Of a stretch of DNA of 64,000 bases, positions 15,735-58,059 are shown one piece after another (positions within the stretch are counted from its first letter, which is position 1; each line of letters begins with the position of its first letter). The DNA comes from Antedon mediterranea. Lineage: Eukaryota; Animalia; Echinodermata. The position numbers and the translations under genes are program-made. The notes beneath the pieces are model-generated. The model ran no database searches. It saw nothing but the letters and a program-made list of their open reading frames with translations, and was not told the DNA's origin. The stretch is from the NCBI RefSeq assembly GCF_964355755.1, contig NC_092672.1, positions 12,834,001 through 12,898,000 of the forward strand. Direction: 5' to 3'.

Positions 15735-15987
15735 TTCAAGCAAGAGGCAGTTGAAAACATTTGTATTTGATAATACATATATAACAGCGTTGTTGTTGAA
15801 TGATTATGTTTTTTTTTTTCAAAAATAAATAATATGTGCATATAAATAATTTTTTCTGTCTTGCATTTTGTATGATCAGGTGTTTTGGTACACGCATTGT
15901 AATGTTGTGGTTGTTTTTTTTTTCTAAAGAATTATCGAACGAATGCTAAATGACCAAGTTTAATGCGTTTACAATAAAATACATGCA

Positions 15988-28717: not shown

Positions 28718-30961
28718 CTGTATTTAAGTTGTTATATCAGTCTTGCGTAGTAATAGAATTAAAAACAAAGTTCGGTCTTAAATTGCCTAAACAATCGTCT
28801 TGGTCGATCAGGGAAGATTAATTGTTATATAATTTTATAGACATTCCTACCTACCACATTTACATAATGCTTCGAGATAATATTATTATTATTATGGTAT
28901 TGCCTTGCTTTTTTAATTGTGGCTACTCGGCTGGCGTAATAATATTTATCACGATGAAAGAGTAAACTTTCCACCACGAGGAGAGAGCATACGTACCTCG
29001 ACGCGCTCTCGCCAGCTATCCCCCTTTCTCTCTCTCTCTCTCCGCGCGCAACCAGCTTACCACGAGGTTTCACAATTCAGGGAAGTTTGTGTGGTAAGTA
29101 GACTAATAATACATAATATAGGCACAATTTATTATTGTTGAAATACTGCAGTTGCATTATAAAATATATTTATATTATAAACTAGGCCAGGGCCTATACA
29201 TTGACTTCCTAGCCTACTAGTTTAGCTAGGCTAACTAGAACTAACTAAGGCCTAACCTTGCTTTAATAGCTACAGTAGCCTTGGCATATGCCTAGAGTAG
29301 TAGTAGTAGTATTATAGTTATTGTAGACTACTACCTAGCCTATGCTAGGCCCCTAGTAGTAGTAGAGTAGCCCTATGCCTAAGCTAGTACTATTAGGCTA
29401 TTAATACCTAACCTAATACTTGGTAGGAGCCTACCAGTACCATATGCATGCTTATGCCTAGAGGAGGCCTTCTATTTATATATACCTTTTGTACTGTATA
29501 AAACTAAAAGTATAAGTTTATCAAATTTGTTATAATAAATAATAATAATACATTAATAAATAAATAGGCCTAGGCCTATATTTTTAATAATTTATTGGGA
29601 AATTGTAAATAATTACCAAAATAAAATTGTATGTTGACCATGTGTTGACTAACATTTAGGATTTATTAAAACATAGGCCCCCTTTCTGTATTATTGTAAT
29701 AATCATTGAGTGTCACAAAAAAAATAATAAATACCTACATGGAAAGGGGAGCCCAAATAAAATAGCCCTCTATTGTACTGATAATATTTCGTTTTTTAAG
29801 TAAATAATGAAATACCATTATTTACTATATACAATTTTTTTCCTACAAAAATATGTACAAATAATCATATTTCGATCTTCAGCTAAGTGTATTATTTTTT
29901 GTATGCCTAATAATGAAATACCCATAGTATATAGTAAACATATAAAGCCACTTGATTGGCTGAAAACCAAAACCATGCTGTCTTTCTAGTCCATGTACTG
30001 GATACCCCCCTCCCACCCATTGGCATATCTCTTTTTTTTAAATGAAGTAAGGGGTGTAAACAAACATAAATACATTTTGGGCTATTTTTGCCATTTAAAT
30101 AAAATGTATAACCTTAATACTTTAGTTCTATTGGCCTTGATCTTGCCTGGACCTCTCTTAAATTATAGTTTTGGAGACACTTTTCATGGCAAAATCGTAA
30201 TTGTTTTTTTATTCTCATGATCCAATAATAATAATAATAATAATAATTTGATTGGTCAATATTTTAATAAAATACATACATATTCATGAGTAGGTGTCCG
30301 AAAACTGGTACTGTCTGGAAACTTATTTATTGTTAATTTTTAAGACAATCTTAGTAATTTAACTTTATTATTGTATTGTTATGTTATGTTATATTATATC
30401 AATGTTTTACTGGACCCTGTGTGGGAGAACAGTAGTTAACTATTGAACAGGCTCCCCAGTATAAAGAATAAGGAAAAAAATGTGACTGTCTGATCACCAG
30501 GTAGGAGACCTAGCCTAGGAGTAGGGGCCACCTTTTATAGCTAGCCTACCTAGGATATTTTGGTTATTTAGCCTGCCCTTCTACTTCTATACCTAGCCAA
30601 TTTTGTAGGCTACCATTTACCTACCTAGGTCTAGGCAAGCCTAGTAATAGGGCTAGATTTTACTTGTTTATTGTAGGTTAGGCCTAGTAGTACTGCCAAC
30701 TCTCACGCAAGAGGGTCAATTTTTTTAGGTCTCACGCCTAGACTATAACTGCATTTAATAATAATTATAATTGTTTTACTCATTGTTAAACCAATAAAGC
30801 ATGGACAATTTTGTTGTTATCTATAGTATTTTATTAGTACAGTACAAAATATAATTGTTATAAAATTTGTTCTTTTAGGGCTGTGGTGTGACATTTGCAG
30901 TACAGTATTATATTTGTCCAATGGTAATTTACCCACTGCATCCTCCTTTACTGTTAGCAAA

Positions 30962-33660
30962 ATGTTTAGGCCAATTTGTCCTACTTGTACCATTCAATTA
31001 TCATCAATCAAAGAATATGTAAAGCATTCCAGAACTCATATTCACCATAGAAATGCAAGATTTCCTTGTTGTTTTCCAAGGTGTATCAGAACGTTTTACA
31101 CCTACAAAGGGTTGACATCTCATATTTCAAGAGACCACAGTGATATTCACTGTCAGTCACAAGTAGACTATAGAAATATTGGTGTTTATGTTTATTGTAT
31201 GTTTGATTTTTGTCGGTCCAAGTGTTCAGATGTTAAGGACTTAATTTCACATTTGAAGACTCACATAGCAAGTGGGTTGAAAGTGGATTGTCCATTTGAT
31301 CAATGCACAGGAAATTTTGGAAAAAAGTCTTCATTTTCCTCCCACATATCACGTTGTCACATGAATTATAGTGTTTATGATATAATGGCAAAATGTGTTT
31401 CCGATGGTACAACTTCAGCCCAGAGAAATGAACATGACAGTAGTGATGATGGACTTGTTCCTTTTGCTGACACAGACATTGATTATGCTGATTCTGAAAG
31501 TCACTCTATTGATGCAACAGAATACACACAATATATTGCATTGTTCTTAATGAAATTGCAGGGAAAGTACTTGATTCCTGAAACAACTATTCAGGTGATA
31601 GTTAATGAGTTGAATTTTTTACAGCAATGTTCTCTTGATCATATGAAGAAATGTATTAGAGCTACACTTACTAGGATTGGTACTGATATTGGTGTATCTG
31701 ATGAAGTATCCAACAATCTGTTTGATGATATAGTAAAAGGTGTGTCAGACCTGAGTTGTTCTTTGATGCCTTCAGAAGCTACTCAGGTACAATCCCCAGA
31801 ATGTGGTGTTCTTCGATCGAAATATATGAGACAGAAATACTACCAAAAAGAGTTTAGTTATGTAGATCCAGTGGAAATTGTGCTAGGAGAAGAGGAAGGT
31901 TTTAAATACAAATGCCACTATGTCCCCATACTTAAAACCCTAAAAATGTTGTATGATGATAAGTCAGTCCAACAGCATATTGTACCCATTGGAGGAGACA
32001 GAAGAGGTTTTGTTGATGTTCAAGATGGAAAAGTGTTCAAAGATAATATTTTTTTCACAGAAAATCCAACTGCACTGCAAATAATCATTTTTCAAGATGC
32101 ATTTGAAGTGGTTAATCCACTGGCCTCTGCTAGAACCAAGCACAAAGTACTTGGTATGTACTTGACTCTTGGCAACATTGACCCACGATGTAGATCCCAA
32201 ATTGATCCAATGCAATTAGTACTACTTTGCAAGGAAAAGTATATAAATAAGTTTGGAGACGATAAGGTTTTTGCTAGACTAATTGCAGACCTAAAAGTGC
32301 TAGAAAAAAATGGAGTTACACTAGCAAATGGTAATGTTGTCAAAGGTGCTATTGCTGCCATAGTTGGTGATAACTTAGGCTCACATTTTATAGGAGGATT
32401 TTGTGAAAGCTTTAACACAGAATATTACTGTCGTTACTGCAATAAAACAAAGACCCAAATCAGAGAAGGTTTTGCAAATAAGGAACAATGGCAATATCGA
32501 ACCCCTGACTCATATACCAGGGCACTTAATATGTTGGAACAGGAAAATGTCCAGTCATATGAAGGAATAAAAAGAGACTCTGTCTTCAACACACTATCAT
32601 ACTTCCATGTGGCTAACCCTAGCTTACCTCCTTGTTTAGGTCATGACATTTTCGAAGGGGTAGTTGACTATGACATGGCTTTGTACATAAATTATTTCAT
32701 TGGGAAAAAATGGTTCACATATCAACTGCTAAATGAAAAACTAAAAAGATTCAAGTTTGTTGGTAGTGATACTGCAAATATACCAGCTGCTGCAATCTCT
32801 AAGAAGAAAGATAAACTAGGAGGACAAGCTGTTCAGAATTGGTGTTATTTACGTTTTTTCCCCCTATTTGTGTTTGGCTTAATTGATGATACAGAAGACC
32901 TTGTTTGGCAGTTGGTTCTTAAATTGAAAGAGATTGTTGAACTTGTTGTTTCTCCCAATATCGATGCCTCACAAGTAGCCTATTTACGTGTCCTGATTGA
33001 AGAATACATCGATGACAGAAGGGAGTTATTCCCATCAAAACCTCTACGACCGAAACATCACTACCTGAGCCATTACCATTGGCACATATTGATGTTTGGG
33101 CCCCTCATCAGATTGTGGGGCTTGAGGTTTGAGAGTAAGCACTCCTATTTTAAAAGATGTGCTCGCTATGCTCAGAATTTTATCAACATCACATCAACAT
33201 TTGCTGAACGGCACCAATTGTTGCAAGCTTACTGTTTTCATGGACAGCTTTATCCTGATGATGTTATGCCACAAATATTCAGAAGGCTGTACAACATCTT
33301 GACACTAACATAACGCAATGGGTGGTAACCGATAAAGTATGTGTGTTTGGCACCAAGTACAAGAAAGGTCTGCTCATTATTGTGAAAACAAACGCCACTG
33401 ACTGGACATTTGGAAATATACTTCTTGCTTTGGTGTCTAACAAAGAGTCGGTACATTTTGTTGTTAGACTATGCAAATCAACTATACTGCGTGAATATGG
33501 CGTTTATGAAATTTCAAGTATGGACATTAGTTCCAGTGTTGTATGTGTTAAGTACAGTGATCTTCTGGATTATTATCCACTTTCCTCTTACAAAATAGGA
33601 GGTTCATACTTTGTCACTTTGAAAAATAAACCAATGGATCCATGCTACAGTACTGCTTAG
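30962..33660 (+). pseudogene. CMC/EnSpm-type transposase with N-terminal C2H2 fingers; one frameshift at about 33270
   Basis: FQDAFEVVNPL, GDNLGSHFIGGFCESF...CRYC, HDIFEGVV, PKHHYLSHY...FGPL..WGLRFESKH. The C-terminus continues in another frame (ATNIQKAVQ...FGTKYKKG...LLDYYPL). Confidence 0.88.
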
Positions 33661-33859: not shown

Positions 33860-36800
33860 ATGATGGAAAGTGATGATTCTGATGATTATACTGTGATTTT
33901 GGGAAATTTGGAGACGACCGTGAAGAAGGTTCTACCTAATATAAAAGAGAGGAAACTGCATCAAATTTTAAAAAGATTAAAGGAGCTTGGTGCCGAAACC
34001 CCTGATGACTTACACATTGTACAAGATGATGACTTATTGGGGACATGCTCAACAATTGAAATCCGAAAGCTCACTACATCATGGAAGAAGGGTGATAGCA
34101 CAGGTAAAAGAGCAAGTAAAACTTACTTCTATCATAATTTTGTTTTAATGTGCACCGATATGATGTTTGACAAGCAGAATTATAATGTAATGGGGAACTG
34201 ACCGACAAAGCTTTTATAATAATATATTAATTTGCATACACTTGTTGTAATTCAAATTTTAAAAAGGACCGGGAACATATATTTTCCTAAAGTGTCAATA
34301 TAATAATTGTTATGGTCGACTGACATTTTAATAGGTCGGTCAAACTGCAAACCAGCTACTTATTTTGTTAGTAGGGCTTAAGAAGGCTTGGTATTAGTGC
34401 TACAGAACATTGAACAATTACCTTTGAAAGAGTTGTTCTTAATGGGTTTTTTCCATTTTCATTACAGAAACACAATGCCAGTCTCCAGAGCAACCAAAGA
34501 AAATGTCTAGAGTTTCATCATGGGTATCATCGCTATCGTCTCCAAATTCCTCGTTGTCATCTAATAGAAGTCTGGAAATCTGTGAAACTAAATATGACAT
34601 TCCCTGGCACAAGTTTTCACCAAAATTGATGGAAGCTTTAGAAAACAAAGTACGGCCACAACCAACCTTGCGACGAGAAATGATAAGAATTATTGTAGAT
34701 AATTTAAACCAGCCAGATGTTCCGTTGCCGAGAAAGAAAACTTTGAGTTTTATTGCAGAAAAGATAGTTGCCAAATACCCAGATTCCTTTATTGACAGAA
34801 TAAATGGAACTGTGGTTGGTTCAGGACACGAAAGTCTCCTAACTCAACTGGTATGCAAGGTTGATAATATTAAAAGACCATGTGAACTGAAACGGAAAAG
34901 AACTGCATTAACGGACACGACACCCAAAACTACTGATACTTACGGATGTATAAACTTTATGCCACTTGATTACCCAGAAGGCCAAACAGACAAAACACAA
35001 AATGAAATCAAAACAAATATGCAAGATACATATAAGACCAGCAGTGCAGCACAATCAAATGATATTCAAAAAAGTATGCATTTGACTTTTGTCTCTCAAA
35101 GGCATTCCATTAACAAGAAAGACTTTGTCCTTGCTGATTTCCTGACCGACTGGCCATATATCACTAAAGAAATAAATATGTCGCAGCACTTCGAGCAGCT
35201 TACTGGAGTAAACATTACAAACATGCTTACGGATGCTTTCAGCACTAAGGTACCAAAGTTACTGAGATATATGAAGTCGCTAGATGTTGAGAATATACAA
35301 GATGTAATGAAGAAGATAGAAGAAGCAGTGACCAGAAAAGAAGATAACACTCCCCAGGTTTTGGGAACAATACAAGTTATTTCAAGCTACTTCAATGAAC
35401 CATTTAATAGTTCTGTCATGTGTACAGAGGTGAGTATACAGTATTTCTAAGAGGTTTTAAAAGCATTTCAGAAATGTCTTCCAAAACTAAAAAGAAAGTG
35501 ATCCAGATGAATGTATTCACTAATTTTCAGAAAGAGTTGAAAATTCCTTCCAGTGTTTTATAAGGAATTTGTTTTAATTATCTTTTCTTAAATTGAGTGA
35601 ATATTGACACAATGTATTCGATTGGCACCCTTTTGGTAATACAGTATTCCCATAAAACTGAACTCAATGTTTGCAATTTAACACATGTGTTGATCGTAAA
35701 ATTGCATGCTATTTTCAGCCTACTGTGTATCATTTGACTACAAAAGATGACTAAAACAATATGAAATCTAATTATTATGTTAATTAAAAATTGTTCCAAT
35801 GTTTTATTCTAACAGACGTCTACAAGTTCAACCAGTTCACTGCAATTACCAGACACTCCATGTATTGTTGCTCATGGTAAGTATTTAGTATTAATTTTAT
35901 TTCTATCAACCCCTTTCGGGATAGAGAGCAGCATTAAGCTCAGTCGCGCAAATTGACGGAAGTCACTGTGTGTGCACTAAACTGTGGAGGTTACCTTATG
36001 TCCGGGGTTGTTTTGGCTGGAGGGTACCATCTTTTGAGAGACGACTTTTTAAAAATTCATTACCTTTTTTAAGATAGGTTTTCTTCAGCATATTTGTTAA
36101 GTTTTCTGCTATATTTTATGGCAAAACACCTCTCTTAAAGTTACACATTATAATGGAAAGGCATTTTGATGGCAAAAAGACTTAACTACTGAGATACGTC
36201 AATATGCATGTATTTCATAAAATCAATGTCTTTTTGTATGTGAATGTCATATAATTTACTTTATTTTAGGATGAAATTTAAACAAAATATTAAATAATAA
36301 TGATATACATTTTCAAATAGTCATAAACATAGGCCTATAGATAAAGAGTATTACAAAAAAGGTCATTTTTCTAAAAATGTCAATTTCTGTTGTTTTTAAA
36401 TGATAATTCATTCATGGCAACTTTAAAATTATTTGTAATATAGGCAGCCCACTTGAAGCCGAACAGTTTGAGATTACCATTGGGCAGAAGGTGGTAACAG
36501 AGGTCAAGAACCCCATCTCAGCTGTATGTTGTTGGTTTATGTCATATTATTGTTTCAATTTTGAATATGGAGAGAATGCTGGGGTAATGGAGTTTATTCA
36601 AAGGTAAGATTGTTTCACAAGATGATTCCACATTTATTACATTAACTTCTAAAAGTTGTGTACACTTTTTAGCATTATTTATGTATTGTTTTTACTGTAG
36701 TTAACATACAGGCATTAATCACTTTTGCTAATTTGACTGTTATGTAGACCTAAATTAATTGTCAATTTGTTATTTTTAGAGACATTCATGGTAACTGAAA

Positions 36801-37324: not shown

Positions 37325-37360
37325 ACGTATGATGTCCACCTTTTTATTGTTGATCATTAT

Positions 37361-38216
37361 GGGTGTCTAGAAAACTCAGATCCAGAAAACTCAGATCTCA
37401 GATATATCTGAGTTTTCTAGATCTAGAAAAGTCAGATATCTGACTTTTCTAGATCTAGAAAACTCAGATATCAAGATCTGAGTTTTCTAGTTCCAAAATG
37501 GAACTAGAAAACCCAATCGTTCTATTATTAATAGAGGGTAGCTTGTTTGAAATACTACAGTATTATACGTTTTCTTACTAATAATAATAATTATTGTAAC
37601 TTGTAGTAGCAGCCTACGACTTATCATTTAGGCCTAGCTAAGCAAACTCAATTCAAGGCTCCATGTGTGGGTGCTATCGCGATGTATATCGCGAAGAGTA
37701 GGCCTGGCCCTACTAGGCTAGAAGTGGTCAACTCGTACCCAAAATAACTTGTACCTATTCCCAAATTGGCTAACTCGTACCTCAACCAACTCGTACCCAC
37801 ACCAACTCGTACATACCTAATTTTTAAGCCTACATTTCAACGGTAAAGTGCACTGTATTTTCTTTATGATTTAAGCCGTGGGCCGCTTCTACATGTTGCA
37901 ATATTAGTAAGAAAACGTAGGCCTACAGTAATCAGTTTTAATAATACTCTAGTATTTCATATGACCTACCTTCTGATTAATAATGGAATGATCCAAATGA
38001 CCTACCAACCAATCATTTGATGATCTGAGTTTTCTAGTTCCATTCTGAAACTAGAAAACTCAGATATTGATATCTGAGTCAGAAAAAAGAAGAGATCTAG
38101 AAAAGTCAGATATCTAAGTTTTCTAGATCTAGAAAAGTCAGATATCTGAGTTGTCTAGATCTAGAAAACTCAGATCTGAGATGTGAGTTTTCTAGATCTA
38201 AGTTTTCTAGACACCC
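37361..38216. mobile_element. Mutator-like (MULE/foldback) MITE, copy 1
   Basis: Long modular TIRs GGGTGTCTAGAAAACT... / ...AGTTTTCTAGACACCC; 9-bp TSD GATCATTAT. Confidence 0.92.
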
Positions 38217-38354
38217 GATCATTATCAATGCTTTTATGTTGCTATTTTTCATTTTTATCTTGCATTCAAATGTGTATGATAGATATCAGTGTATTGCATT
38301 TTAGATTATGTACAAGTTGTACAGTAACAATTATAGCTTTGTCAATTGTTCATT

Positions 38355-39439: not shown

Positions 39440-39685
39440 ACTGCAAATTACCCAGGTACAGGTATTAATGTACCGTATTACATTTTAGATGATGAAAATG
39501 GTTGGTTTTAGTATGTTAATGATTATGTACAAAATTATTCTGTACACATACAGTCAGTGAATTGCATTTTATATGATGATAATTGTTGGTTTTAGATTTA
39601 AATGATTATGTACAAGTTATACTGTACAGGTATTAATGTACCGTATTACATATTAGATGATGATGATTGTTTTTGTTGGTTTTAG
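39440..39685. repeat. Minisatellite of about 85 bp inside the CMC element, split by later insertions (continues at 54306-54394 and 55284-55670)
   Basis: The unit TTGGTTTTAG...AATGATTATGTACAA...CATTTTAGATGATGA occurs on both sides of the P element and of MITE copy 2. Confidence 0.88.
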
Positions 39686-40687
39686 CATGGAGGTATAAAA
39701 AAGAAGGAGATTCAACTAGCTAATAGAGATTAAAATGCTGTGTGCTATATGAACTATGACTGACTTCCTCGGACGCTGATTGGCTCGCTTAAATGAGTTC
39801 AAAAAAGCCGCCTTCCGCTCTTAGTGGAGTCTGTTAGGGATATTTTGGTTCACTTTTTTCCAAAAGCACCAAATTTGGTATACAGGTTACCCACCCTATA
39901 CTAATTCAATTTTTGATGGGCGCCAAGCGAAATGACCCCTTGGGTCACCTAATTTGCATAATTTAAAATGGCGGACAGTTTCGCTCAAACACTCTATATC
40001 TCTGAAAATACTGGTCACAGAGAGTTGATTTTAAGTTCAAAATGTTCAGAACATAAACATTCCTATTTGCTCTAATTAAGTTTTTTTTATAAAAATGACC
40101 GGAAGTACCATTTTTAACCTTTGACCCATTTTTTATGGCATTGCCATATCTCAATAACGAGTTGTCGTAGAGACTTTATTTTGGTGTCAAATTGTTCAGA
40201 ATATATATGTTACTATTTAGTTTAATGGAACATTTAATCAAAAAATGACCGGAAGTACGTAATTTTGCCTTTGACCTTTATGGTGTATATTACAATTGCT
40301 AACTAAATCAATGTTAACATATTTCTCGATATCTCTAAAATTACTTGTCATAGAGAGTTGATTTAGGTTTCAAAATGTTCATAGCATAAACATTTCTATT
40401 GGCTATAATGAAGATTTTTTTCAAATAATGATCAGAAATATTACATTTGACCTTTGACCTGTTTTTCAAGACATTACCATATCTCATTATTAAGTTGAGT
40501 GGAAATTTCATTTTGGTGTCAAATTGTTCAGAAAGTGTATGTTTCTATTCACTCTAAAAAAAAATTTGATCAAAAAACTTAACCAGAAATAATTCTTTTC
40601 ACCTTGAAGTTCAAACATGAAATTTATAACCACCTCGGTAAAGATTCTATTCTATAAAAATAGAACACTACCTTGAGTTTCAACATT

Positions 40688-43600
40688 TTAGGCATTATGA
40701 GATTCATAATTACTACATCCACCTTCACACTTGCACAAACTTGTACATCTGACACCAGCACGAAAACATTTACACCTCCCAGCGCAAGTCTTGAGGCAGC
40801 CGCAGTGCATAAGTACAGCACATGCCACAGAAGCGTCAGTAAGTGTGGTCCACAGTGGCTTCCAGTTGTTTGAGTCATCTCTCTGCCAGCCCAGTCAGGG
40901 ATGTTCTGATGAGCTATGATTGCTTTTACTCCAATAAAAACTTGCTTGCAGTAACGCTCTCTTTACATGCTGGAATAATGCAGCTTGAGTTGGTGGTAGT
41001 TTTTCTAACGATTTTCTGCCAGTTATAAACATGTGATGCCTAGCTTCATTAACCTTTGAAAAGCCACACCCTTTATTGTACATAAGAACAATAAATCGTT
41101 CGATATCTCTCATGTGTTCGGATTCAATATCAAATGACAAAGGATGGTTGATGAGTTCTACAAGTGTCTTTGTTATAGTGGATGTACTATTCCATGTTGA
41201 CCAGGCAGTTTTCTTACCAATCCCAAGAAACTGTGAAGTTGTGTCGCATCCAGTTAGACTGTGAAAAAGCGGTAATGCAACACATCTTGTTGGCCCAAGA
41301 TTTAAAAAGATGGTATGAACAGGAATATCACGATAATGCTTTCCTGTTCCAAAGCCAACCCAAAGTTCCTTGAATTTAAGGGTCTCAAAAAAGTGAATTG
41401 CCAGGATCACAACATCACTATCCACTGTACGAATATACGCTGTAAAATGACCTTCTTTTGCTGCATGTGACAGATGTAAGATAATCCTGGTGTCTGCCTC
41501 AGAATGGTTACATGACTGAAGAGATGATACATCACACTCTCTATTTGAAAGAACGGCATCAAAGCGATTACTTATAAGAAGTTTCCCACACATGTCATTT
41601 TGAACTATTTGTTCACTGATGAAGGGGAACAATTCCTTCTTGTTTTCTTCATTCTTTAGAAATCCATTCCAGTCTTGTTTTGGAATTTTTGTGTTTCCAT
41701 CACCAACTTTTGTTCGAGGACCATTTCCACGTCGCTGTTGCGTCAACAATTTAAGGTTGTTACATTCTGGGTAATTGTCCCATACTGCATCAATTCGTTG
41801 AGTATCTCTCTTTAATTGGGCCTTTAAGAATGGTATGATGTTGTACTTCACATACTCATTGAAAGTATTGACATTTGTGGGACGTACCATATGGACTACT
41901 GCTGCCATATCAAGAACCACAACTGATGTTTTTATAACATCAGGAGGTTGGCAGATGGTAGATTTATCAAGACACTGAAGAATGTCTGATTTCGTCCCAG
42001 ACCTAAGTAATCCTTGGTCCGCCAAGCTTGGTGGCTCTCTAAGATTTTCAAATTTAAAAAATTCAGCCAAGTCAGCATCTGGACGAGATTGGATGGACAG
42101 GAAAAGTTGCGTTACTAATGACATATTATGCTTTAGTATCCCCTTGTCATTATTGCCTTTTTTCTTGATGTTTGGTCGATTAGCAAAGGTTAAAATGTTA
42201 TTACGTTTGATCGTATCGGTAACTGGTACTGTTGCCTTTTCTAGTCGTTCAGTAACATACGTGTTATAAAGAGATTGGCCAGTTTCACGTATTTTGGAGA
42301 GGGATCTGACAACTGCACTTTCCATGACACTGTGAGTATCAAGTGCATAGAGTTCGTGACTTGTTTCACAGAACGGATTGTTGAGCTCTTCCACCACCTT
42401 AACAAACGAAATTACATCATTTCGAAACATTACTTGAAAGCTGTGTCCTTCCTCATGATGAGCATTGGAAACTGATGAACTGATGTCTGTTTCGAACTCC
42501 TTAACAATCCGTGAACAGTCTGGTCCAGTCAACATAAACAGGGTAAGATTGTCAGGGTTCTCGTAAAGACCAACTGCTCCACCATGTTCCTGAAGTCTTC
42601 TGTTTGACTGTTCATGAGATTGGTCCTTGGCAATGAGGCTAAACTTTTTTGCTGATTTTTGCACAACAAAGTTTCCCTTCATAAACTCTGCATAAATGGC
42701 CGGGTGAGTATCTGGTAAAGTAACCATGTCACGTACATGAACTGGAAGCCAACGAGCATAGTTCACATGGTCAAGGACATGGAACCAACCACAGAGTTCA
42801 TCACAAGATTGAACATATAACTCAAAATTTCCCTCTCGAAGAGAACGTATAAAGCGGGCCATCATTAGTTCTAGATCCATTATCATCGACCAAAATTGAA
42901 ATTGAGGCACAGAATCTGAATTTCGACGATTCCACATTTCGAATGGCTCAGTTGGGCCCACTACACCGGTGCTGTATTTTGTGTATGCAGTTTGTTTCAG
43001 AAGGTAAAGTGACATTAGTGTTACTTGATGTGCATACCTAGTACGTTTGATTTTATGTTCATTGAGCACAGATTCTGCACGCCCAGATGTTAAAACTTCT
43101 GCCTGAGAAAGGACCGTTGCCCATCCTGAATCGCGGAGCAGCTTTCCTATCATAAGATGCATCTTGTCTTCAATGTGCAATGCACCCATCATAGCAACCA
43201 ACTTGCTTTCTCCTAAAGTATCAGGATATTGCCACTGAATTCGTTTTATGATCGCATACAGTGGCTGATCAGCACCAAGTACAGATGTCTGACCCTGGTT
43301 TATAAACTTGGTACTTTTCATTGTCAATTCCATTGCGTGTTTCATTGAAGATGCACACGCAGCCTTATTTGGAAAGAGAGGGTATATACCGATCTCGGCA
43401 GGTGGTTTTACCGATTCTTCACTTGCCATCCTTGAATTATATCCCGACCAAGTGATAGTATCAGAATTTGTAAGTGTTTCCTTCTTTAAAACACCCATGG
43501 TATGTGCCATCCAAACTTCATCTTTAACTTTAGCACCGTGTAAATTGTGTTGAGGTCTGCATCTTCTACTATCATCATATAATGGTGCAAATACATTTGC

Positions 43601-45346
43601 ATTTGTGAGATGAATTGGAGTATGTATTACATAGTCATCTGGTAGTTGAGGTTTCTTTGTGTCTATTGGATTGATACATATAGGTGGACGTTTCTTTCCT
43701 TGATTGTCATGAGAAAGATGGTTCGTAACACTGAGGGCATATCCATGAAACTCATCTTGTGAGAAGTTTCCTTGTGCTTTGCTATCTATATTATCTACAT
43801 CGTGTGTGGTGAATACATTGAGACGAATGTTGGTAGGCAAAACTACCCCATCCTGAAAAAAAGTTAATGATTAATGTTTAAAAGCGGCCTAGTAATTACA
43901 TTATACAGTATTGGATTTATTATACATTAAAAACATACATATAAAACATACATATAAAACACTGATAGAATTTACCTTAGCATGGCGAGCACAAACGGCA
44001 CGTGCAATGTCTTTCTTCACTTCCATTATGCGACTATATGATACTGAAAGACCATGTGCATGATCAATATCGATCTGCTTTCTGTTTCTTCCTTGACCGT
44101 GTAGTTTAAGTCCGTGATATAAAGGAAAGGGCGTTTCTCTTTCCTTATTGTGTCGTATTTCAGCAACTTTGCATACGTGATGCGTACCTTTGCTAGCATT
44201 AAATATTAATAACTGCGAAATATTGCGTGCAATCTTCTGCCTTTTATTTACATTTACTCCATCCTCGTTTCTTTGAAGAGGATCTGGGCCCTGAAGTACT
44301 ATATTGAGAAAACTCATCAGCTCTTCACTTACAGCAACTGTTTGGCAATCAGAAGAGAAGGAGCCATTGAAGGGCGGCTGGTCCCGCAAACAAAGATTGT
44401 GCATTATTACAGCAGCCCTCATCAACGTTAAAGCATCTTCTTGACATAACTGTGACTTAAATGCTTTTTTAAGTTCCTCCACTACTTTTGAATTATTAGA
44501 TATGAAGATATCTTTTCTACCATATTTTTGTGTAGAGAATTCTTTCCATTCAGGAAGAAAGCTGAGAAGGTGGTCTTTAAATCTGGTTGCATGTGGATCC
44601 TTTTTATTTCGACATGGGTGTCCATTATCACACATTAGCTTCTGATAAATTTCACGCAGCTCTGAAAGCTTAAATACTGTACTTTTTGCATTTTCGATCA
44701 TGGTTACAATTTGAGCACATATTATAGAATCAAATGGTAAAATTATTGCAGGTGAAACATCTTTCGATCGCTCAGTAGACCGGGCAGAATCTCTTAATTG
44801 TGTATAACACTGACGATGGTAATAAAAATCAGCTGCATGGGCGTCAGAAGCTACAGTTAGTCTACCAAGCAACTGGAAATTTTTATTAATTTTTGCCCAA
44901 CACTTTAGATTAACATCAACAGCATCTGTTTCCACCTTATGAAGGTTGGTTGGAGATTTCTCCTCGCAGATTACACAGCATATTCCTACAGTCAAATAAT
45001 CTGATGATCGAAGTTTCTTTGGACTACTATGTGTTGTAATACTAGCGTCATTGTTTAGCTTGCTACTTGCCCGCTTGACACGTGAGCTGCTAACAAAGCT
45101 TCTGCACATTTTATGATACTTTGCTTTATGTATTTTTAAAGTTTCTGCAATACCTGACCCATCATCTAACTGACTAAGTGTCACATTGATACCAGCAGGA
45201 AATGTATTTGGGTTTATCTGACTTAAATTGTTTATATCTTTCTCTAGTGATAACATTCCATTTTCAGTCGGTGTTTGTAAAGGTTGTTTATTTTTTTGTT
45301 GACAAAGGCAACAGAGATCCCAATTCAAATTGTTGGTAGAAGACAT
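40688..45346 (-). pseudogene. Academ transposase with XPG/PIN-like nuclease and Cys-rich tail; exons 45346-43976 and 43852-40688
   Basis: DNID, FHG, DQPLYA, GALHIE, NYARW, DQSHEQ, HSEADTRIILH, DSDV, GCDTTS, LPPT..AL..HVKRA. A premature TGA at 40895-40897 separates the tail CGCLKTCAGRCKC...CTSLCKCEGGC. Confidence 0.9.
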
Positions 45347-46305
45347 TATTAATATTTATTATCCTATAGTTAAGGTGTAAAAATCCTAGGAAAAAAAATA
45401 CAAAGTTGTTATCAACATGATTTTAAGAAAGCAAAAATTGTGTATACTGCCTTTCGCCTAGGCTAGGCTAGGCCCAAGCTAGGTGTTCTACCATCTATAG
45501 AAGTATACGCACCTAGGCCTTTGAGTTTGAAATATATTATTTGCAAAGTATAATTAATGTCTATCTACTAAAGATGAGTATTCTTTGTCTATACAATGTC
45601 TATCATTTGCATGTATTAATATGTACTCACAACTAAATAGGACAATCTATTTAACTTCATTCAGTGCAGTAACCATTGTAACTATGCAAGTAGCCATCTT
45701 TGACATGTGCTCAAAAGTTTTAGATTATATGTTGATAGAGGGCGTAGTTCAGTCAAAATAATATAATTATGGCTTACCTGAGAGCTACTTCCGGCCATTT
45801 TTTGGCAAAATCTTTCATTATACAGAATAGAAACATACTGTACACTTTCTGAACAATTTGACACCAAAATGAAATTTCCACGGCAACGCAATAATGAGAT
45901 ACGGTAATGTCAGGAAAAACAGGTCAAAGGTCAAATGTAATATTTCTGATCATTATTTGAAAAAAACCTTCATTATAACCAATAGAAATGTTTATGCTAT
46001 GAACATTTTGAAACCTAAATCAACTCTCTATGACAAGTAATTTTAGAGATACAGAGAAATATGTTAACATTGATTCAGTTAGCAATTGTAATATACACCA
46101 TAAAGGTCAAAGGCAAAATTACGTACTTCCGGTCATTTTGTGATTAAATGTTCCATTAAACTAAATAGTAACATATATATTCTGAACAATTTGACACCAA
46201 AATAAATTTTCTACGACAATTCATTATTGAGATATGGCAATGCCATAAAAAATGGGTCAAAGGTTAAAAATGGTACTTCCGGTCATTTTTATAAAAAAAA
46301 CTTAA

Positions 46306-47536
46306 CCCATTGACCCCTAAGTTTATTTTGCTCCCCTGGGACCCAAAAAGCATATGTCATATAATTAACCCTAACTTTTTTTCTAAACACAGACATTAAA
46401 AAAATTAAAAAACAAAAATAATGCAAAGGACATTTTATTTCCAAATATGTTTTCAAATTTGTGTTACAACTTATTTTGGCGGAGTATGGATTATGCAAAT
46501 TTTAGAAATATTTTAGGAAAATTATTAAAAATTTGTAATTTATCTTTGACTACCAAATGCACAAAAATTAATAAATATTTCATAATAAAACTCATCTCTT
46601 CATCAGAACCTATTTCTTCTCTTCAAAATAAGACCAAACTTGACCATTATGAATGACCGGTTTCGAAATTATGAAGAAATTAGTAGACTGACTCATCCGA
46701 CGATGACCATATGGGGCCTAGGCCTATCGGGAGCCGCCCCGAGAGCGTCCTCGCCGCTGTTTGTTCACCGGGAATGTTAAAAAAAACATCCCGAAAGCGA
46801 CTTGGAATTCGCGATTCCCACGCGCACCGGCATCCCTCGGGAGCTTAGTCCGCTGTTTTAGACGTGTAGCTTGCAGAAAATTTGACGAAAATGCGTCGAA
46901 AACTTATGAAATTAAAACAAGTTTGGTATCAAAATGTTTGTCAAAAGTTATGCTTCAATAAACTGACCTTTGCGCAGAGTTTGAACAAATATTTCATGCC
47001 CATAATGCATCTGACATGTCAGGGTTCATATTACAATCAAAGGTAAACAATATGGCGCGGCCCTTGTGAGGACATCTTCACGACTTTTCTCCGGTAGAAA
47101 AATCACATTTTTACATGGAAATATGACGATTTAGACACTGTAACTGATACATAATCTTTATTTATTATACATTTATTGTATACAAGCTTCAAAATAGTGA
47201 TTATTAGAAATAAAGATGGATTTTAGACGATTTTACGTTGTATGTCTAGGCCTAGATTCATTCAACGCGCCTGTCGCGTTTCGAACAGCGTGCTTCGAAA
47301 AACGGTTATATTTTCGAATTTTATTTTCAAACTAACTTCAACAATTGTTTTTATATATTTAGAAGCATATTTTTAAAAAAAAAGTTGTGAGTATTTTGTA
47401 TAATTATTTGTTACGATTCATGCACAGCAAACTGCGCATGTAAATTCGATTTACTTTTTTTTTGTTGAAAATTTGTTTACAATGACCTTGACTTTTAACC
47501 TTTTGAGCGCTTTAAGCGCTTATCGTGGTGAATCGG
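46306..47536. mobile_element. Non-autonomous piggyBac-type element inserted in the Academ TIR
   Basis: TTAA on both sides; imperfect TIRs CCCATTGACCCC / GTGGTGAATCGG. The opposite Academ TIR shows the empty site with a single TTAA. Confidence 0.88.
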
Positions 47537-48820
47537 TTAATTAGAGCAAATAGGAATGTTTATGTTCTGAACATTTTGAACTTAAAATCAACTCTCTGTG
47601 ACCAGTATTTTCAGAGATATAGAGTGTTTGAGCGAAACTGTCCGCCATTTTAAATTATGCAAATTAGGTGACCCAAGGGGTCATTTCGCTTGGCGCCCAT
47701 CAAAAATTGAATTAGTTTAGGGTGGGCAACCTGTATACCAAATTTGGTGCTTTTGGAAAAAAGTGAACCAAACACCCATATTTCATCCCTAACAGACTCC
47801 ACTATCTGCCACGCGGGACGTCGCCTTTCATCGTTGTCAGTGCAGCCGGTCGTTCATACGCTTGTTACAAGGCCCCTTAGCATTTAAGTCGCCCCGAACA
47901 TGTATTTTAAACACTTTTTTGGTTGTATTTGCTTCTAGAGAGGGCTTGTGGGGTCAGAGTTTAACTTATCCGAAACCATATTGAATTTAGAAAGCCATTA
48001 CATTTTATTAGAAGAAAATCGAGTAATATTTACCAAAATAACCGTAAGTTTAAGATTTTATGGTTTTTATATTATATATCGATAACACGATAACGTCGGA
48101 AAATGATTTTTTTTAGTAAATATTATTTAATAATTTAGGTGTCAAACCGTGAAAATCCCGACCGTGTACACGCGTGTATATTTTCTCTACATGCATTGCA
48201 ACATAGGGCTTTTTTCTCGGCGAGTCGCTTGTTGGTTCATCAAGTGTGACGTAATCAACGGGTTAGGAAGATAATGCTGGGGCTAGGCCTAGAGTATCCT
48301 TCTTGTTTGATATTATGATTCGTGAACCTATTCAACATTGTTATTAATATAATTTATAGTTATAGGCTAATTTATATTATAATTTTAATACAATGGTGAA
48401 CACATTTTAGTAAGACAGAGTAGGCTAAGTAAAGTAAAGTAAGGCTACTAGTACTACTAAACTAGCTAGCTAGGCCTCTACACTACTAAGTCTAGGCCTA
48501 GACTACAGTACAACTAGTTGGTTAATATGGTTTGTTTTTGTCAGATAATTTTTAATTAATTTAATTTTAGTAGTTTTTAACCTACCATAGGCCAAAATTA
48601 AATCTGGTAAACTGCAAGTTACATAAGAATTTTAAGATATTTAAATGTCATAAATGTCTTGCAAACATTGAATTGGTAACCAAAATATACAGAATAATTA
48701 ATGGTAATACCAGGTAATTTAACTTTATTTTACAATATTAGCAATAAGTACATTTTTTTTAAATGCCAATGATTTTTTTTATAATTTCTAAATTAATTTA
48801 ATTTCAGGAAATTGTAGAAA

Positions 48821-51800
48821 ATGGAACGGCACAAATGTTGCCTCCAGGATCTCTGTAGATTATGTGGTAAAAAAAACTGCTCTAAAATAAATCTATTGAA
48901 ATCCAAGTTGTGCTATGCAAGAGATATCAACCTTTCATTAGGAGTTGATGTGTTGCAAGATGTAGATGGCATCCATCCCAACTTCATCTGCAACTGCTGT
49001 AAGATGAAATTACATCGTTGGCGGACTTTCCGCAATAAGAAAAAAGACAAAGAAATATCAATTCATCTTTTGCCATTTGCTGAACATTCCGATGATAATT
49101 GTTCTGTATGTGCATTTTCTGTTCCATTGATCAATCTCAACAAAATTCTAGCAATTGGGAAGAATCTTGGCTTTGTAGCACAACTTGGAACCGACAAAGT
49201 CACATTCATTAAGATAATTAATGATCTTCCTATTGTTTGTGTGCATATTTATGCCACATGCTCATGGAAAGTAAATGTTTTGTTGAAGGATTCTACAAAT
49301 AGATGTGCAAAATTTCCTGAAATTCTGACAGAAGATAATGCAGAATGTTTATTGACATGGATATGGAAATCTGCAATTTGCTGTGGAAACACTGAGTTCA
49401 TCCAACTTTGTCGCAAGCAATCACCATCAAACCTAGCAGTGTTTAATAGTATTTCTGGATCAACAGTGGCAATGGAAGAGGACACAAATGGTGAAAGAAC
49501 AATAAGGCACGTGAACTGCTGTATATTTGTTGAGGGAAATCGCTGTGAAGTATGCACAATGTATAGAACAACGTTAATGTCTAAAAGGTCAAGAATTAAT
49601 GATCAAAAAGCAGTAGACATTAGTTCTCATGCACGAAATGATCAGTTAAACAATGATCAGTTAAGGAAAAAGTTGATGTTGGTGTCAAATGACAGGAAAA
49701 ACTTACAGAAAATGGTTAAAGACCTTAAAGAAAAAGTAAGGAAGTCATTTGAAGATGATTCTAGTCCATTGCAAGAAACAATGTCTGAAGCTCTAAAGAC
49801 AATAATGACAACACATACAGAAACTGTGTCAGAACAATTTAAGGAAGGTTCTCCACAAAGACTACTATGGGATGAACAAGTGGCTGCCAATAAATCATCT
49901 GCAACAGGTCGTCGTTGGCACCCAGCAATAATTCGTTTTTGCTTAGCGTTGCACATGAAGTCTACTGCAGCTTACCGTATTATTAGGAACTCTGGTTACT
50001 TGACATTGCCACATGAAAATACCCTAAGGAACTACACACATTTTACTGATGCAAAGTCTGGTTTTAATCCTGATGTTATCCTGCGGATAAAGCATGATAT
50101 ACATTTTGATGCGTTACCTAATTTTAGGAAAATTGTTTCATTAAGTTTTGATGAAATGAAGATAAACGCAGGTCTTGTGTATTCTAGCAAATCGGGTAAT
50201 CTTGTTGGATTCTCCAGTATGGGATCAATGAACGAAGCCATGGACAATTTTGCAAGAGAGTTGGACTTGGACAAAAATAAACAACCAAAGGAAGCATCAC
50301 ACATGTTGTCTCTGATGGTTCGGGGCATGTTTATGCCTTTACATGAAACATTCGCACATTTCCCCACTCATGGCTGCAAGAGTTACAATTTATATTGGAT
50401 CATATGGAAAGCTGTGACTTGGCTAGAGTATGCAGGATTCAGAGTTTGTGCTTTCGTATGTGATGGTGCAAGTCCAAATCGAAAATTTTACAGACAGCAT
50501 GGAACATCTGTTTCTTCAGAAGTTGTCTTTTCAACCATTAGTCCATATACGAAAAGGAATATCTATTTCATTTGCGACACTCCACACTTGTTAAAGACTA
50601 CAAGAAATAATCTCGAAAACTCTGGATTTAACTCAAAATCAAGAAACTTGCATGTGAGTTATACATTTTAATATTTTTTTTTCATACCAGTTTTTACTAG
50701 TGAAAACACAATTCCGCCCCCCCCCCCCCCCCCAACTTTATGCTACAGTGGCAAGCTCTTCATTTTTTTTCCTCTTTTTTTTTGCAGTTTAATCATCAAG
50801 ATCTAAAGTGGAATCAGTTGCTCACCTTGGTAGAAGAAGATATTGGATGTGGTAGTGGCCTAAGAAAACTCCACAAAATACGCCACGAACATTTATACCT
50901 TACGCCAAGCTTAAGGATGAAAGTTAAACTAGCTGTCCAGGTAATTTTAGTTTGTTTGTTTAGTTTTTAGTAATCTGAGACCCAATGTAAATTTAAATTG
51001 ACTTCTTTCTTGTTGTCTAGGCAAATACATTTTTTAAAGTTTTTATCATTCTCCATTTATCTTAGATCCTTAGCAGCAGTGTTGCCCATGCGTTGGAAAT
51101 TCAAGGCAGACATGACACAAAAAGTCTAATCCACTTCATAAAGTACATGAACAAGTTTTTTGATTGTCTTAATGTTAGTCGTGTTGAGAGACGAAGAAAC
51201 AACATAAATGAGAACCTGTTAGAATACAGAAGTGTGGATGATTCAAGATTAAAGGTACAGATTTGTTTTTCAAATTATTAAAGAATTTCATATAAATTAT
51301 CCTAATACACCTATAGTCAACCAAACATGAAGATCGGTTTACCCATGGAGTTATATTTTTATACCGCCATGATTTAACTGAAAAGTTCAGCCAAGATTTA
51401 TACTTACCCCAGTGAATTTGGGGTATACACCTAAGTGTATCCTTGCCATTTGATTGGTTGATAAGGTATCATGCGACATGCATTTTTTCAATCCATCCTT
51501 GCATTCAGGTAGTATATTGAATATTTTATTCATGGAATGGGCTAGCCCATCTTTCAATGGTTACTCATGAAATCATTTTTACTGGCTTTTAGTGGCTTGT
51601 AGACGATTTCCTCGGCTTTCTTAATACATGGGAGAATCAATGTTTGGAAACACCAAATACAACAGCAGCAGAAAAGAAAAGGATGTGCCTAAGTCGTGAA
51701 ACACTTGACGGACTAAGAATAACAGGTTATTTTTTTTCTTTTCATTTATGTTTAGCTATAGATTGTTTGATAGATCATAGGTTGCAAAAGCACAATCTAA

Positions 51801-52272
51801 TAAGTTCTTTATCTTTCAGTGTATTAAAAAGTAAATATAAACCAGGGCTTGCGACCCCTGTCTTCTAGCCTGGCACGTCATCAAATCCTGTTATTCCTAA
51901 TGATTGTATTGTTAAAAACTATATTAAATCAAATGTTAATACAATTAATGTTTATTGTGTTCCTCTACAGTTAACTCTTTTGTGAAACTTACAAAGGAAT
52001 TGCTTGCTACTGATGGTGTGGACTATGTGTTGAGTGAAAAACTAAACCAAGATCCTCTTGAGGAATACTTTAGCAAACAGAGAGGATGTGGAGGAAGAAA
52101 TGAAAACCCAACAGTTCATCAATTCCAACATAATGCATTGACACTACAAGTTGCAGGAGCCAGAAGTGTAACTGGTTCAATCCACTCCAACACCAGGAAG
52201 TCTGGATTTAGCATAGACAGTACCCCATTCCCAAAAAGAACGAAAACCATAAATAATAAAGTAGAAATATAA
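48821..52272 (+). CDS. P-element/THAP9-family transposase, 5 exons (48821-50653, 50788-50940, 51066-51254, 51593-51725, 51971-52272), 869 aa; RAG1-N/Chapa-like Zn module instead of THAP
   Basis: All junctions are GT-AG and in frame, with no stops. Motifs RWHP..IRFCL, LSFDEMKI, CDGASPN, CDTPHLLK..RNN, RMKVKLAVQ, FFDCLN, NQDPLEEYFSKQR..GG.NENP. Confidence 0.93.
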
Positions 52273-54014: not shown

Positions 54015-54394
54015 CACATCAATTTTTGTAGAATAACCTCCATTGAATAAAAGAATACAGTGTTGCTTTTTTGCACTGCCGCGCGCTTGCACACGACGCT
54101 CATGTGCTCGAGGTCAAGTGGTTTGCTTCCGGTTTTACAATTAATTATACGACCTTTTCGTGACATATTGACCTTGTACGCCACGCAGTGCTTATGTGCG
54201 ATACCGTTTATAATTACTCCCTTATCTGTTAAACATTCGGCGGCTGCAATGAATACATCAAAGGAGACAAGCTAGTTGAATCTCCTTCTTTTTTATACCT
54301 CCATGGTTTTAGTATGTTAATGATTCTGTACGAAATTATACTGTACACATACAGTCAGTGAATTGCATTTTAGATGAAAATGGTTGGTTTTAGT

Positions 54395-55283
54395 GGGTGT
54401 CTAGAAAACTCAGATCTCAGATATATCTGAGTTTTCTAGATCTAAAAAAGTCAGATATCTGAGTTTTCTAGATCTAGAAAACTCAGATATCTGAGTTTTC
54501 TAGATCTAGAAAACTCAGATATTAAGATCTGAGTTTTCTAGTTCCAAAATGGAACTAGAAAACCCAGATCATCAAATGGATCGTTCCATTATTAATAGAG
54601 GGTAGCTTGTTTGAAATACTACAGTATTATACGTTTTCTTACTATTACTAATAATAATAATAATTGTAACTTGTAGTAGCAGCCTACGACTTAAATCATA
54701 AAGAAATACAGTATACACTTTTTAAAATGTAGGCTTATCATTTAGGCCTAGCTAAGCAAACTCAATTCAAGGCTCAATGTGTGGGTGCTATCGCGATGTA
54801 TATCGCGAAGAGTAGGCCTGGCCCTTATCTAGTCTAGAAGTGGTCAACTCGTACCCAAAATAACTCGTACCTATTCCCAACTTGGCTAACTCGTACCTCA
54901 ACCAACTCGTACCCACACCAACTCGTACATACCTAATTTTTAAGCCTACATTTTATCTGTAACATGCGCTGTATTTTCTTTATGATTTAAGCCGTAGACC
55001 GCTTCTACATGTTACAATATTATTAGTACACAGTAATCAGTTTTAATAATACTGTAGGCCTACTCTAGTATTTCAAATGACCTACCTTCTGATTAATAAT
55101 GGAATGATCCAAATGACCTACCAACCAATCATATGATGATTTGAGTTTTCTAGTTCCATTCTGGAACTAGAAAACTCAGATATTGATATCTGAGTTTTCT
55201 AGATCTATCTGACTTTTCTAGATCTAGAAAACTCAGATATATCTGAGATCTGAGTTTTCTAGATCTGAGTTTTCTAGACACCC
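54395..55283. mobile_element. Mutator-like MITE, copy 2 (same family as 37361-38216)
   Basis: Same TIRs and interior; 9-bp TSD GGTTTTAGT. Confidence 0.92.
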
Positions 55284-55799
55284 GGTTTTAGTATGTTAAT
55301 GATTATGTACAAAATTATTCTGTACATTTACATACAGTCAGTGAATTGCATTTTAGATGATGATGATTGTTGGTTTTAGATTTAAATGATTATGTACAAG
55401 TTATACTGTACAGGTATTAATGTACCGTATTACATTTTAGATAATGATGATTGTTGGTTTTAGTATGTTAATGATTCTGTACAAGGTTATACTGTACAGG
55501 TACAGACAGTCAGTGAATTGCATTTTAGATGATAATAATTGTTGGTTTTAGATTTTAATGATTATGTACAAGTTATTTATACTGTGCACAGGTATCAATG
55601 TACCGTTACATTTTAGATGATGATAATTGTTGGTTTTAGTATGTTAATGATTATGTACAAGTTATACAGTAACAATTATATCTTTGTCAATTGTTCATTT
55701 AATAACGGTAACATTGAAACCTTGCATTTTCTGTTCATAAGCTGAAGTTTTGAGAAAATAAAAATGTTTTTTTCTGTAATTCTTCATGTGACTCAACAC

Positions 55800-56507: not shown

Positions 56508-58059
56508 TATGCTTACAATATAGGACATTTTATTCTTTTTAAAATGAAGACAACCAACCTACCAACTATTATTTAAAATATTATGTTTAATTTTGTAGCT
56601 TTTAGGAGACAACACAGAGAAGCACATACGAGTACAGAAGTGTCTTCACCTCCAACTTCTCCTCATTCAAGGACATCACAGTCCTACAAATCGATTTTCT
56701 CTAGGAATGAAAACACTGATGACAGTAAGTGTATTTTAATATCTGTGTGTTTAATATTTTCAACGTGCGAGTTTTTGGAGCTGATGGACAGAAAGAGCAC
56801 CAGACGGAGGGGAGTAGCATGGTAGTATATCTACTAAAATCACCAGCGCATTTGGCTTTTCTGCATTATCCGCATATAAATGTGAAACTATTAAAACGAT
56901 TATTACAGTATTAATAATACCTAACCATACTATAAATTATGCTTGTCACAAAGGAAATCAATGCAAATAGAATTAAAAAATTAAACCAACGTGTAAACTT
57001 CTAACAAAATACATTATACTGTACATTCTGTTTTGTTTTATTTTTTTAGGTTTTAAAATCAATGTCTTGATGAAACTGGACACTATAATAAAAAATCAGA
57101 ATGAACAGCTTCAAATAATAAAGAATCAAGCAATTCAAAAAGGTGCATTAGAAGATGCAGAAATTGAAGATGTTGTGCCTCAACCACTAGAAAGCAAAGA
57201 AGAATTGTACTCACTTGATGAAAAATTGAAAGATGCGGCATTTAGGAAGAACATGGTAAATCTTAAAAATTCTATTTGTACCGTATGTTATAGTGTAAAT
57301 TTATTTCCTACAGTGATCCCATTATATACTCATATTGAGGTTATAGAAATACAAGGAGGTCGCGAACAAGCAGGAATACGGTTTACACAGCAAAATTTGA
57401 AATTCTAAGCAAGAAAAAAAAATCTTGTTTTAAGAAAAAATTCTTAAAATAAGTATTTTTTTTTCTTGTCAAGATTTAAAATTACTTAAAACAAGAAATA
57501 ATTTTCTAGAAAAGACACATTTTCTTAAATTAAGTTTTGCAATATTCTTAAAAATGCTTATTACAAGAAATATTTTACTTAAAATAAGGAGTCAATATCA
57601 TTCTCTTCTTATTAAGAATAGTTTTGCTTAAAACAAGATTTGAAAATACTTAATTTGAAAAGTATTTTACTTAAAATAAGAAATCAATATTATATTTATC
57701 CCTATCAAGAATAATTTTTCTTAAATCAAGATTGATGAATTCTAAAAATTACTTAAAACAATAAATATTTTTCTAGGTAAGACAAAGTTTCTTAAATTAG
57801 GTTTCGCAATATTCTTAAAAATACTTATTTTGAGAAATGTTTTACTTAAAATAAGAAGTCAATATCATACTATCTTATCAAGACTATTTTTGCTTAAAAT
57901 TGAGATTCGCAATATTTTTAAAAGTACTTATTTTGAGAAATGTTTTAATTAAGATAAGAAGTCAATATCATACTATATCCTATCAAGACTATTTTTGCTT
58001 GAATTGAAGTCAATTCTATTTTAATATTTTTAAAAATACTTATTTTGAGAAATGTTTTA

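Follow-up and report, generated by a model that had tools for sequence, protein, structure and literature searches.

A RAG1-type N-terminal zinc domain in place of THAP on a two-gene P transposon of Antedon mediterranea

A window of 64,000 nucleotides of Antedon mediterranea DNA was analysed, in which a transposon of the P superfamily carries two convergent genes. We consider it probable that this is a complete two-gene P transposon in which the N-terminal zinc domain of RAG1 (NZD, type I Chapa) takes the place of THAP, that the module was captured by the ancestor of its branch, and that it acts there as a DNA tether of low sequence specificity.

Kapitonov and Koonin (PMC4411706) placed the fusion of Chapa and RING to the core in an ancestor shared by Chapaev, Transib and RAG1, and reported the two domains in no other known transposable element. 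The available text of Hong et al. (10.64898/2026.01.24.700457) names Chapaev as the only other lineage that consistently retains the domain, and calls its physiological role undefined. A search of the full-text literature (Repbase Reports and most subscription papers lie outside it) returned no report of a Chapa domain or NZD on a P element or of a separate gene for the P C-terminal domain (CTD), and neither appears in the accessible passages of 10.1101/2021.09.26.461848, 10.64898/2026.09.03.748810 and PMC7204232. The NZD-bearing P element is genuine and appears to be a previously undescribed variant of its superfamily.

Identity of the N-terminal domain

The double zinc finger occupies residues 1-97 (48821..49111, forward strand), beginning with a Met at 48821 and followed by eight zinc ligands, H4, C12, C15, C57, C60, H89, C94 and C97, at 48830-49111; the motifs that a preliminary description of this DNA had placed at 48821..49115 were present. 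By alignment to mouse RAG1, the ligands were assigned to two sites, ZFa (C12, C15, C57 and C60) and ZFb (H4, H89, C94 and C97). The ligands, together with L8, R13, G16, P53 and L64, did not vary across the 14 aligned N-termini, although only the last five columns are independent, as the 13 relatives aligned with the query had been chosen for having all eight ligands. Shuffling the 100 residues 200,000 times never produced the spaced ligand pattern, which had been composed after inspection of the sequence.

The preliminary description had also found no THAP signature, and this was borne out: Pfam gave no THAP match at E<=1 for residues 1-100, residues 101-300 or the whole first exon, the C2CH pattern was absent from residues 1-320, and an AVPT-type box was absent from the entire protein. 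An in-frame stop at 48815-48817, just 5' of the Met, means that an upstream exon cannot supply a THAP through an acceptor directly before it.

When residues 1-100 were searched alone, the best Pfam match was zf-AD (E 8.1e-7; 29.6 bits, above the cut-off of 28), ahead of RAG1_imp_bd (E 0.0022, below its cut-off); the three matches at E<=10 among PDB sequences were all RAG1. The preliminary description had expected neither THAP nor a generic ZAD to lead this comparison, an expectation that held for THAP and failed, with the single query, for ZAD. The domain might accordingly be read as a generic ZAD dimerization module with extra Cys and His residues, which oligomerizes the transposase and resembles RAG1 through a shared ZAD ancestor. 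ZADs also came first in both searches of solved structures, covering residues 10-76 only and weakly (E 0.03 or Z 6.1), in rows without RAG1 or 21WB and from libraries that do not state whether they include 21WB, and 13 P rows kept the ZFa half alone. When a profile of the 14 N-termini was compared with PDB sequences, however, matches were obtained to the RAG1 NZD 21wb (E 8.3e-14) and to full RAG1 (7.6e-10), the best ZAD reaching 1.7e-4, and in the Atlas searched by features RAG1_imp_bd clusters scored 0.93 versus 0.82 for the best zf-AD cluster.

The profile alignment paired C12, C15, C57 and C60 with C110, C113, C175 and C178 of mouse RAG1 ZFa, and H4, H89, C94 and C97 with H102, H206, C210 and C213 of ZFb, leaving a 19-residue gap at vertebrate helix H2. 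The mouse NZD structure has been solved by Hong et al. (bioRxiv 10.64898/2026.01.24.700457), who describe, in the part of the preprint available, a ZFa that resembles a ZAD and a ZFb that is missing from it. Because half of an NZD is ZAD-like, a single query scores better on zf-AD, and ZFb becomes the discriminating test. Of 28 P-type domains, 24 have their ZFb ligands at the RAG1-like spacing H-x7-C, whereas a ZAD has one zinc site that resembles ZFa only, and the ZAD matches end at residue 76; the query passes the zf-AD cut-off, yet carries four conserved ligands beyond a single C4 site. The cut-off of RAG1_imp_bd was passed by five of the 30 relatives scanned, all of which also had P RNase H domains. 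The family profile, the Atlas, these relatives and the second zinc site settle the choice in favour of RAG1, and we regard the ZAD explanation as very improbable.

Structure prediction agreed with the preliminary description. The AlphaFold model of the N-terminal domain (pLDDT 87.7; helices 2-8, 29-40 and 58-72, in keeping with H1, H3 and H4 of an NZD) retrieved chordate RAG1 clusters in 8 of 10 rows of an Atlas structure search with residues 1-100, at TM 0.79-0.84 over 90-97 residues, values in which both sides are modelled; the first row was a mostly echinoderm cluster of P transposases with 59 members. From sequence and model comparison together, 48821-49111 is predicted to encode the RAG1 NZD, and neither a THAP nor a plain ZAD, and the proposal of a RAG1-N or Chapa-type module on a P transposase was upheld by the profile match to 21wb and the Atlas matches to RAG1.

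A P-superfamily transposase

The transposase gene comprises five exons with GT-AG introns and encodes 869 aa without an internal stop, and its spliced product is identical to the database protein P0001 (Antedon mediterranea). All exons lie on the forward strand. Exon 1 (48821..50653) encodes the NZD, a middle domain, a likely coiled coil, an HTH and the N-half of the RNase H with the catalytic residues D444 (at 50150) and D548 (at 50462); exon 2 (50788..50940) encodes the GTP-binding insertion, and exons 3 (51066..51254) and 4 (51593..51725) are followed by exon 5 (51971..52272), which bears the catalytic E800 at 52060. Pfam matches were obtained to TNP-like_RNaseH_N (5.5e-19), GBD (7.8e-15), RNaseH_C (7.6e-8) and Tnp_P_element (1.6e-5). 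When the protein downstream of the zinc domain was searched, Drosophila P transposase (6p5a_A, 1.2e-19) was the sole PDB match at E<=0.01. D444, D548 and E800 aligned with the P core and were kept in every row reaching them in a 30-row alignment. These matches identify the protein downstream of the zinc domain as a P-superfamily transposase with a GTP-binding insertion.

The middle domain (residues about 105-260; 49133..49600) matched no Pfam family. Four of its cysteines (C187, C233, C242 and C245) were kept in 29-30 of the 30 alignment rows and likely form a further zinc site, and the domain is a candidate for DNA binding. Within the two-gene P group, a four-Cys middle domain was shared by members of NZD, THAP and other types. 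Identity to the query was higher in the NZD (24-40%, 12 rows) than in the middle domain (20-28%).

The P CTD is absent from the transposase, which ends 69 aa past E800. Across the transposase and 32 relatives, the distance from the catalytic Glu to the protein end was 50-77 aa in all but two of the 33 rows, which had 28 and 127 aa.

A convergent second gene

On the reverse strand, convergent with the transposase, lies a gene of two exons that corresponds to the database protein P0196. Exon 1 (54014-53699) encodes a weak PHD finger (E 0.042) and exon 2 (53373-52352) a helical domain homologous to the CTD of Drosophila P transposase. The intron was skipped in one contig of X5, a guessed RNA run. 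An X5 contig over this gene, which does not show strand, extends to 51993, and the second-gene transcript may overlap transposase exon 5 (51993-52272) in antisense.

A search with the second protein by itself recovered homologues from 18 of 80 metagenome loci at E<0.01. With a 17-member profile the number rose to 26 of 80, every one on the opposite strand, and to 24 of the 32 loci having at least 1 kb of downstream sequence, counts in which 16 of the positive loci had contributed to the profile and some closely duplicate one another. Against the PDB, the sole significant match of the profile was the Drosophila P CTD (6p5a_B, E 2.5e-6), and three of the 17 members matched Tnp_P_element_C. The same chain, 6p5a_B, was the top Foldseek match of the modelled protein (probability 0.99, E 0.06; next 0.08). 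As a single sequence the second gene found nothing in PDB and Pfam searches, the profile alone giving a match; an Atlas search returned a single weak bacterial match (0.77), and a homologue search over 2775 candidates of lengths 186-594 only the protein itself. Among 195 searched proteins and the query set, the CTD profile matched P0196 alone.

We infer from the profile and the model that the second gene encodes the P transposase CTD that the transposase is without. The CTD of Drosophila P touches transposon and target DNA, according to the available portion of PMC7776569. In its split CTD the element again differs from the textbook P element, and as both genes are carried by a locus with a THAP-like box (L005), the split layout reaches beyond the NZD branch. 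In this element a weak PHD lies ahead of the CTD; L043 has a clear one (E 3.3e-9) and is the only one of the 80 loci with the pattern. Homology of the second gene to RAG2 was rejected, since the PHD comes first and is followed by a P CTD homologue, and kelch was not matched in this partner gene.

The element and its ends

The element is complete, with perfect 36-bp terminal inverted repeats (TIRs), a 7-bp target duplication, an intact transposase and the second gene; neither its ends nor its second gene had been noted in the preliminary description. The left TIR (39686..39721, forward) starts CATG and is preceded by the target duplication at 39679-39685, while the right TIR (54270..54305, reverse) is followed by its copy at 54306-54312; target duplications of 7-8 bp are typical of the P superfamily. 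The element measures ~6.6 kb once a nested insertion is subtracted.

This insertion, a DNA transposon in the left end (39822..47804, reverse), has TIRs of about 268 bp that are 95.5% alike and a 3-bp duplication, and we take it, putatively, to be Academ-like from its TAG termini. It has long ORFs on the minus strand (40898-43870 and 43904-45355) and an inner inverted repeat (40076-40577 / 45798-46305). Left of 47805, contigs of two runs continue unlike the window, as an insertion-free copy may do. Contigs of three runs from two samples join 48384 to ~51897, the junction of an internally deleted copy without most of the transposase. Both genes were also found on overlapping contigs in a second organism, with about 2-3% of letters differing. 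In TIR scans, complete ends were found in one of 80 loci, L005, in which both genes lie within 32-bp TIRs and a 7-bp duplication.

Elsewhere in the window, an 878-bp direct duplicate (25488-26362 and 56508-57385, 99.5% alike) lies outside the element, and two copies of a palindrome-rich repeat (37360-38217 and 54394-55284) lie in the same satellite that hosts it. Other long ORFs, at 15964-20298, 4617-5717, 30827-33310 and 34443-35447, include by eye two gag-pol-like and two transposon-like frames.

Distribution and phylogeny

Among 50 core homologues, whose named sources were echinoderms, cnidarians, amphioxus, hemichordates, a mussel and a sponge, the NZD profile matched 21, all eight ligands were present in 13, and Pfam detected THAP in two. 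At E<=0.001, a search of 1.84 billion proteins with the profile gave 2002 matches. The best 150 of these contained 144 new matches: 43 P-type, a count biased upward by a profile built from P rows; 13 RAG1L or NZD-RING, a class that mixes true RAG1L (P0095 and P0097 pass Pfam RAG1) with NZD-RING fragments that may be Chapaev; six Chapaev-like, an inferred label for which a motif search of the published supplement, whose first part shows N-termini, gave no match; and 82 unclassified. A pattern search of viral contigs gave 28 matches, with no relative among them.

Of the 36 NZD-type rows in a 112-row core tree, 35 fell on a single branch (support 100), and NZD-bearing P cores were echinoderm, cnidarian and metagenomic. 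The branch (46 rows) includes 11 without a visible NZD, most of which begin too late to tell. Thirteen THAP-type rows sat on a separate branch; a further 51 rows off the NZD branch show neither domain, many for an unread upstream exon. A 36-row core tree, its rows hand-picked by the analyst, grouped 14 of 15 NZD-type rows (100/99) and all seven THAP-type rows (100/98), the THAP labels being mostly assigned from an AVPT-like box, with Pfam passed only by P0037 and P0039. NZD-bearing P transposases thus appear in these trees as a whole branch, not a one-off. As the core trees have no outgroup, the direction from THAP to NZD was read from the presence of THAP in Drosophila P and THAP9 (PMC7776569).

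The outlier P0152, whose domain pairs with a Chapaev-like row (98/88), gives a hint of a second capture. Approximately unbiased (AU) tests rejected neither the grouping of all 15 NZD cores as one clade (p 0.102) nor a single clade of P-type domains (p-AU 0.125, with P0152 excluded after the tree had been inspected), so that one capture and two are both compatible with the data. The domain tree was poorly settled at depth (16 of 66 branches starred, bootstrap unsettled) and names no donor. Of the separate phylogenies that the preliminary description had proposed, the core tree thus grouped the NZD rows, and the domain tree did not reveal a source. The claim that the module moved between superfamilies is a sound inference, since the module is attached here to P cores and elsewhere to RAG1/Transib or Chapaev cores; the further claim of a bearing on how RAG1 gained its N-terminus was not supported, the domain tree having neither a root nor resolution at depth.

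P, RAG1L-type and Chapaev-like domains were intermixed in the domain tree and P-type carriers are many and diverse, as might be expected had the NZD arisen on, or passed through, P-type transposases before being handed to Chapaev and RAG-like elements. This order of events is improbable in our estimate: the NZD is restricted to essentially one branch of the sampled P cores, a single P domain clade was not rejected, a GRP tail as printed for Chapaev-1/2_BF and _NV occurs in four of 28 P-type domains, and the Chapa domain spans Chapaev, Chapaev3 and RAG1/RAG1L in the available part of PMC4411706. A broader proposal, which we hold to be rather doubtful, treats the NZD as a free-moving end-binding module that was swapped repeatedly among P, Chapaev and RAG-like elements, with P as a possible donor or relay of RAG1's NZD; in it, the present P branch, whose NZD transposase faces a partner gene with a PHD that completes the enzyme, would have reached a RAG1/RAG2-like two-gene layout independently. 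We favour instead a capture by the ancestor of the NZD branch, with a Chapaev- or RAG-like element as the most likely source. The exchange of THAP for NZD would be old and have happened once or twice, and the second zinc site would later have been lost in several lineages.

Several related proteins differed in layout. Two or three NZD copies were seen in P0053, P0054, P0056, P0052, P0055 and P0085; no transposase core was seen in P0053, P0054 and P0056, which have low-complexity linkers and are possibly domesticated host proteins, and in P0052 three NZDs are followed by a P-type middle domain. Two-gene P relatives with a basic visible N-terminus and without THAP or NZD were also found (L030, L070 and L079; P0033, P0048 and P0050). 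Several of these have the GRP motif, and P0152, with both NZD and GRP, groups with L030.

Proposed mode of action

In the favoured reading, the P core would cut and paste like Drosophila P, using GTP, and the second protein would provide the CTD in trans, presumably through protein binding. Transposition in the P superfamily is GTP-dependent and involves 17-nt overhangs. The NZD would be basic and monomeric and would load the enzyme onto double-stranded DNA as a tether of low sequence specificity, and end specificity would come mainly from the HTH and the conserved four-Cys middle domain. In the available text of PMC7776569, tethering in Drosophila P is performed by THAP. Mouse RAG1 87-217, as described in the accessible part of PMC3124419, is monomeric with two zincs, bound dsDNA at 0.8-3 uM and selected no sequence. 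Net charge over the 20 residues after ZFa had a median of +7 in the 28 P-type domains versus +2.5 in the RAG1L/RING class (12 rows). A tether of low specificity is favoured because of this basic stretch and the unselective binding of the mouse fragment.

The main rival to the tether is sequence-specific binding to a weak subterminal repeat, in which the NZD would be a true replacement of THAP and such binding the ancestral job of the RAG1 NZD. The candidate inverted repeat (47819..47847, forward) agrees in 23 of 29 columns with 54241-54268, and lies about 112 bp inside the left TIR with the nested element removed and 1 bp inside the right TIR, an unequal spacing like that of the transposase sites of P. 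Its score was equalled by 22 of 1000 dinucleotide shuffles, a weak result, and the mouse fragment's lack of sequence selection likewise tells against the proposal. The positional swap is exact, with the remaining architecture common to THAP-type relatives, and the helix after ZFa is strongly basic; against this, many relatives show no THAP and no NZD over the stretch that was read. We judge such specific binding possible, if unlikely. The suggestion in the preliminary description that the module recognizes the element's ends was not sustained, since the RAG1 copy binds dsDNA without detectable sequence specificity in the portion of PMC3124419 cited above.

A branch of P transposases with an NZD indicates that the domain crosses superfamily lines, which weakens shared-domain parsimony as an argument for RAG1's origin, and published accounts probably understate how freely the domain has moved between unrelated transposon families. 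P transposition requires an N-terminal DNA tether, and the intact element permits a direct test of NZD function.

Comparison with known systems

The canonical architecture of Drosophila P and THAP9, an N-terminal THAP with a fused CTD, was not found here. The element shares with Drosophila P transposase (6P5A/6PE2) and THAP9 (PF21787, PF21788, PF21789 and PF12017) the HTH, the split RNase H with a GTP-binding insertion, the aligned D/D/E residues, TIRs starting with CATG, a target duplication, an internally deleted derivative and a CTD homologue. It differs in that the NZD replaces THAP, an extra four-Cys middle domain is present, and the CTD is encoded by its own convergent gene, where it follows a weak PHD. 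The TIR and duplication measure 36 bp and 7 bp, versus 31 bp and 8 bp, the latter being the Drosophila value in PMC7776569.

The likeness to a ZAD (zf-AD; PF07776, 7PO9 and 1PZW) covers the ZFa half, residues 10-76, with an rmsd of about 2 A. A ZAD has a single zinc site, dimerizes and is without a basic patch, according to the part of Hong et al. (10.64898/2026.01.24.700457) at hand.

As a whole, the element has a P core and neither a Transib- or Chapaev-type core, nor RING, nor a RAG2L partner. With Chapaev type I Chapa domains (Chapaev-1/2_BF and Chapaev-1/2_NV) the NZD shares the second-zinc set of one N-terminal His and C-terminal His, Cys and Cys, as well as the absence of H2, and some P relatives show by eye the GRP basic tail; the catalytic core, ends and second gene here are P-type, and RING is absent. 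In the published Chapa alignment (PMC4411706), rows for RAG1L and Chapaev-1/2 agree by eye with the ligand pattern, and among the 33 rows of its first part no P element appears. Compared with the NZD of RAG1 and RAG1L (CND; 21WB; PF12560), the domain lacks the H2 insertion of jawed vertebrates and RING, and is joined to a P rather than a Transib-type core, but it has the same eight ligands in the same order at near-identical spacing, the [IV]HP ahead of the second CxxC, and a predicted fold that matches at TM 0.79-0.84.
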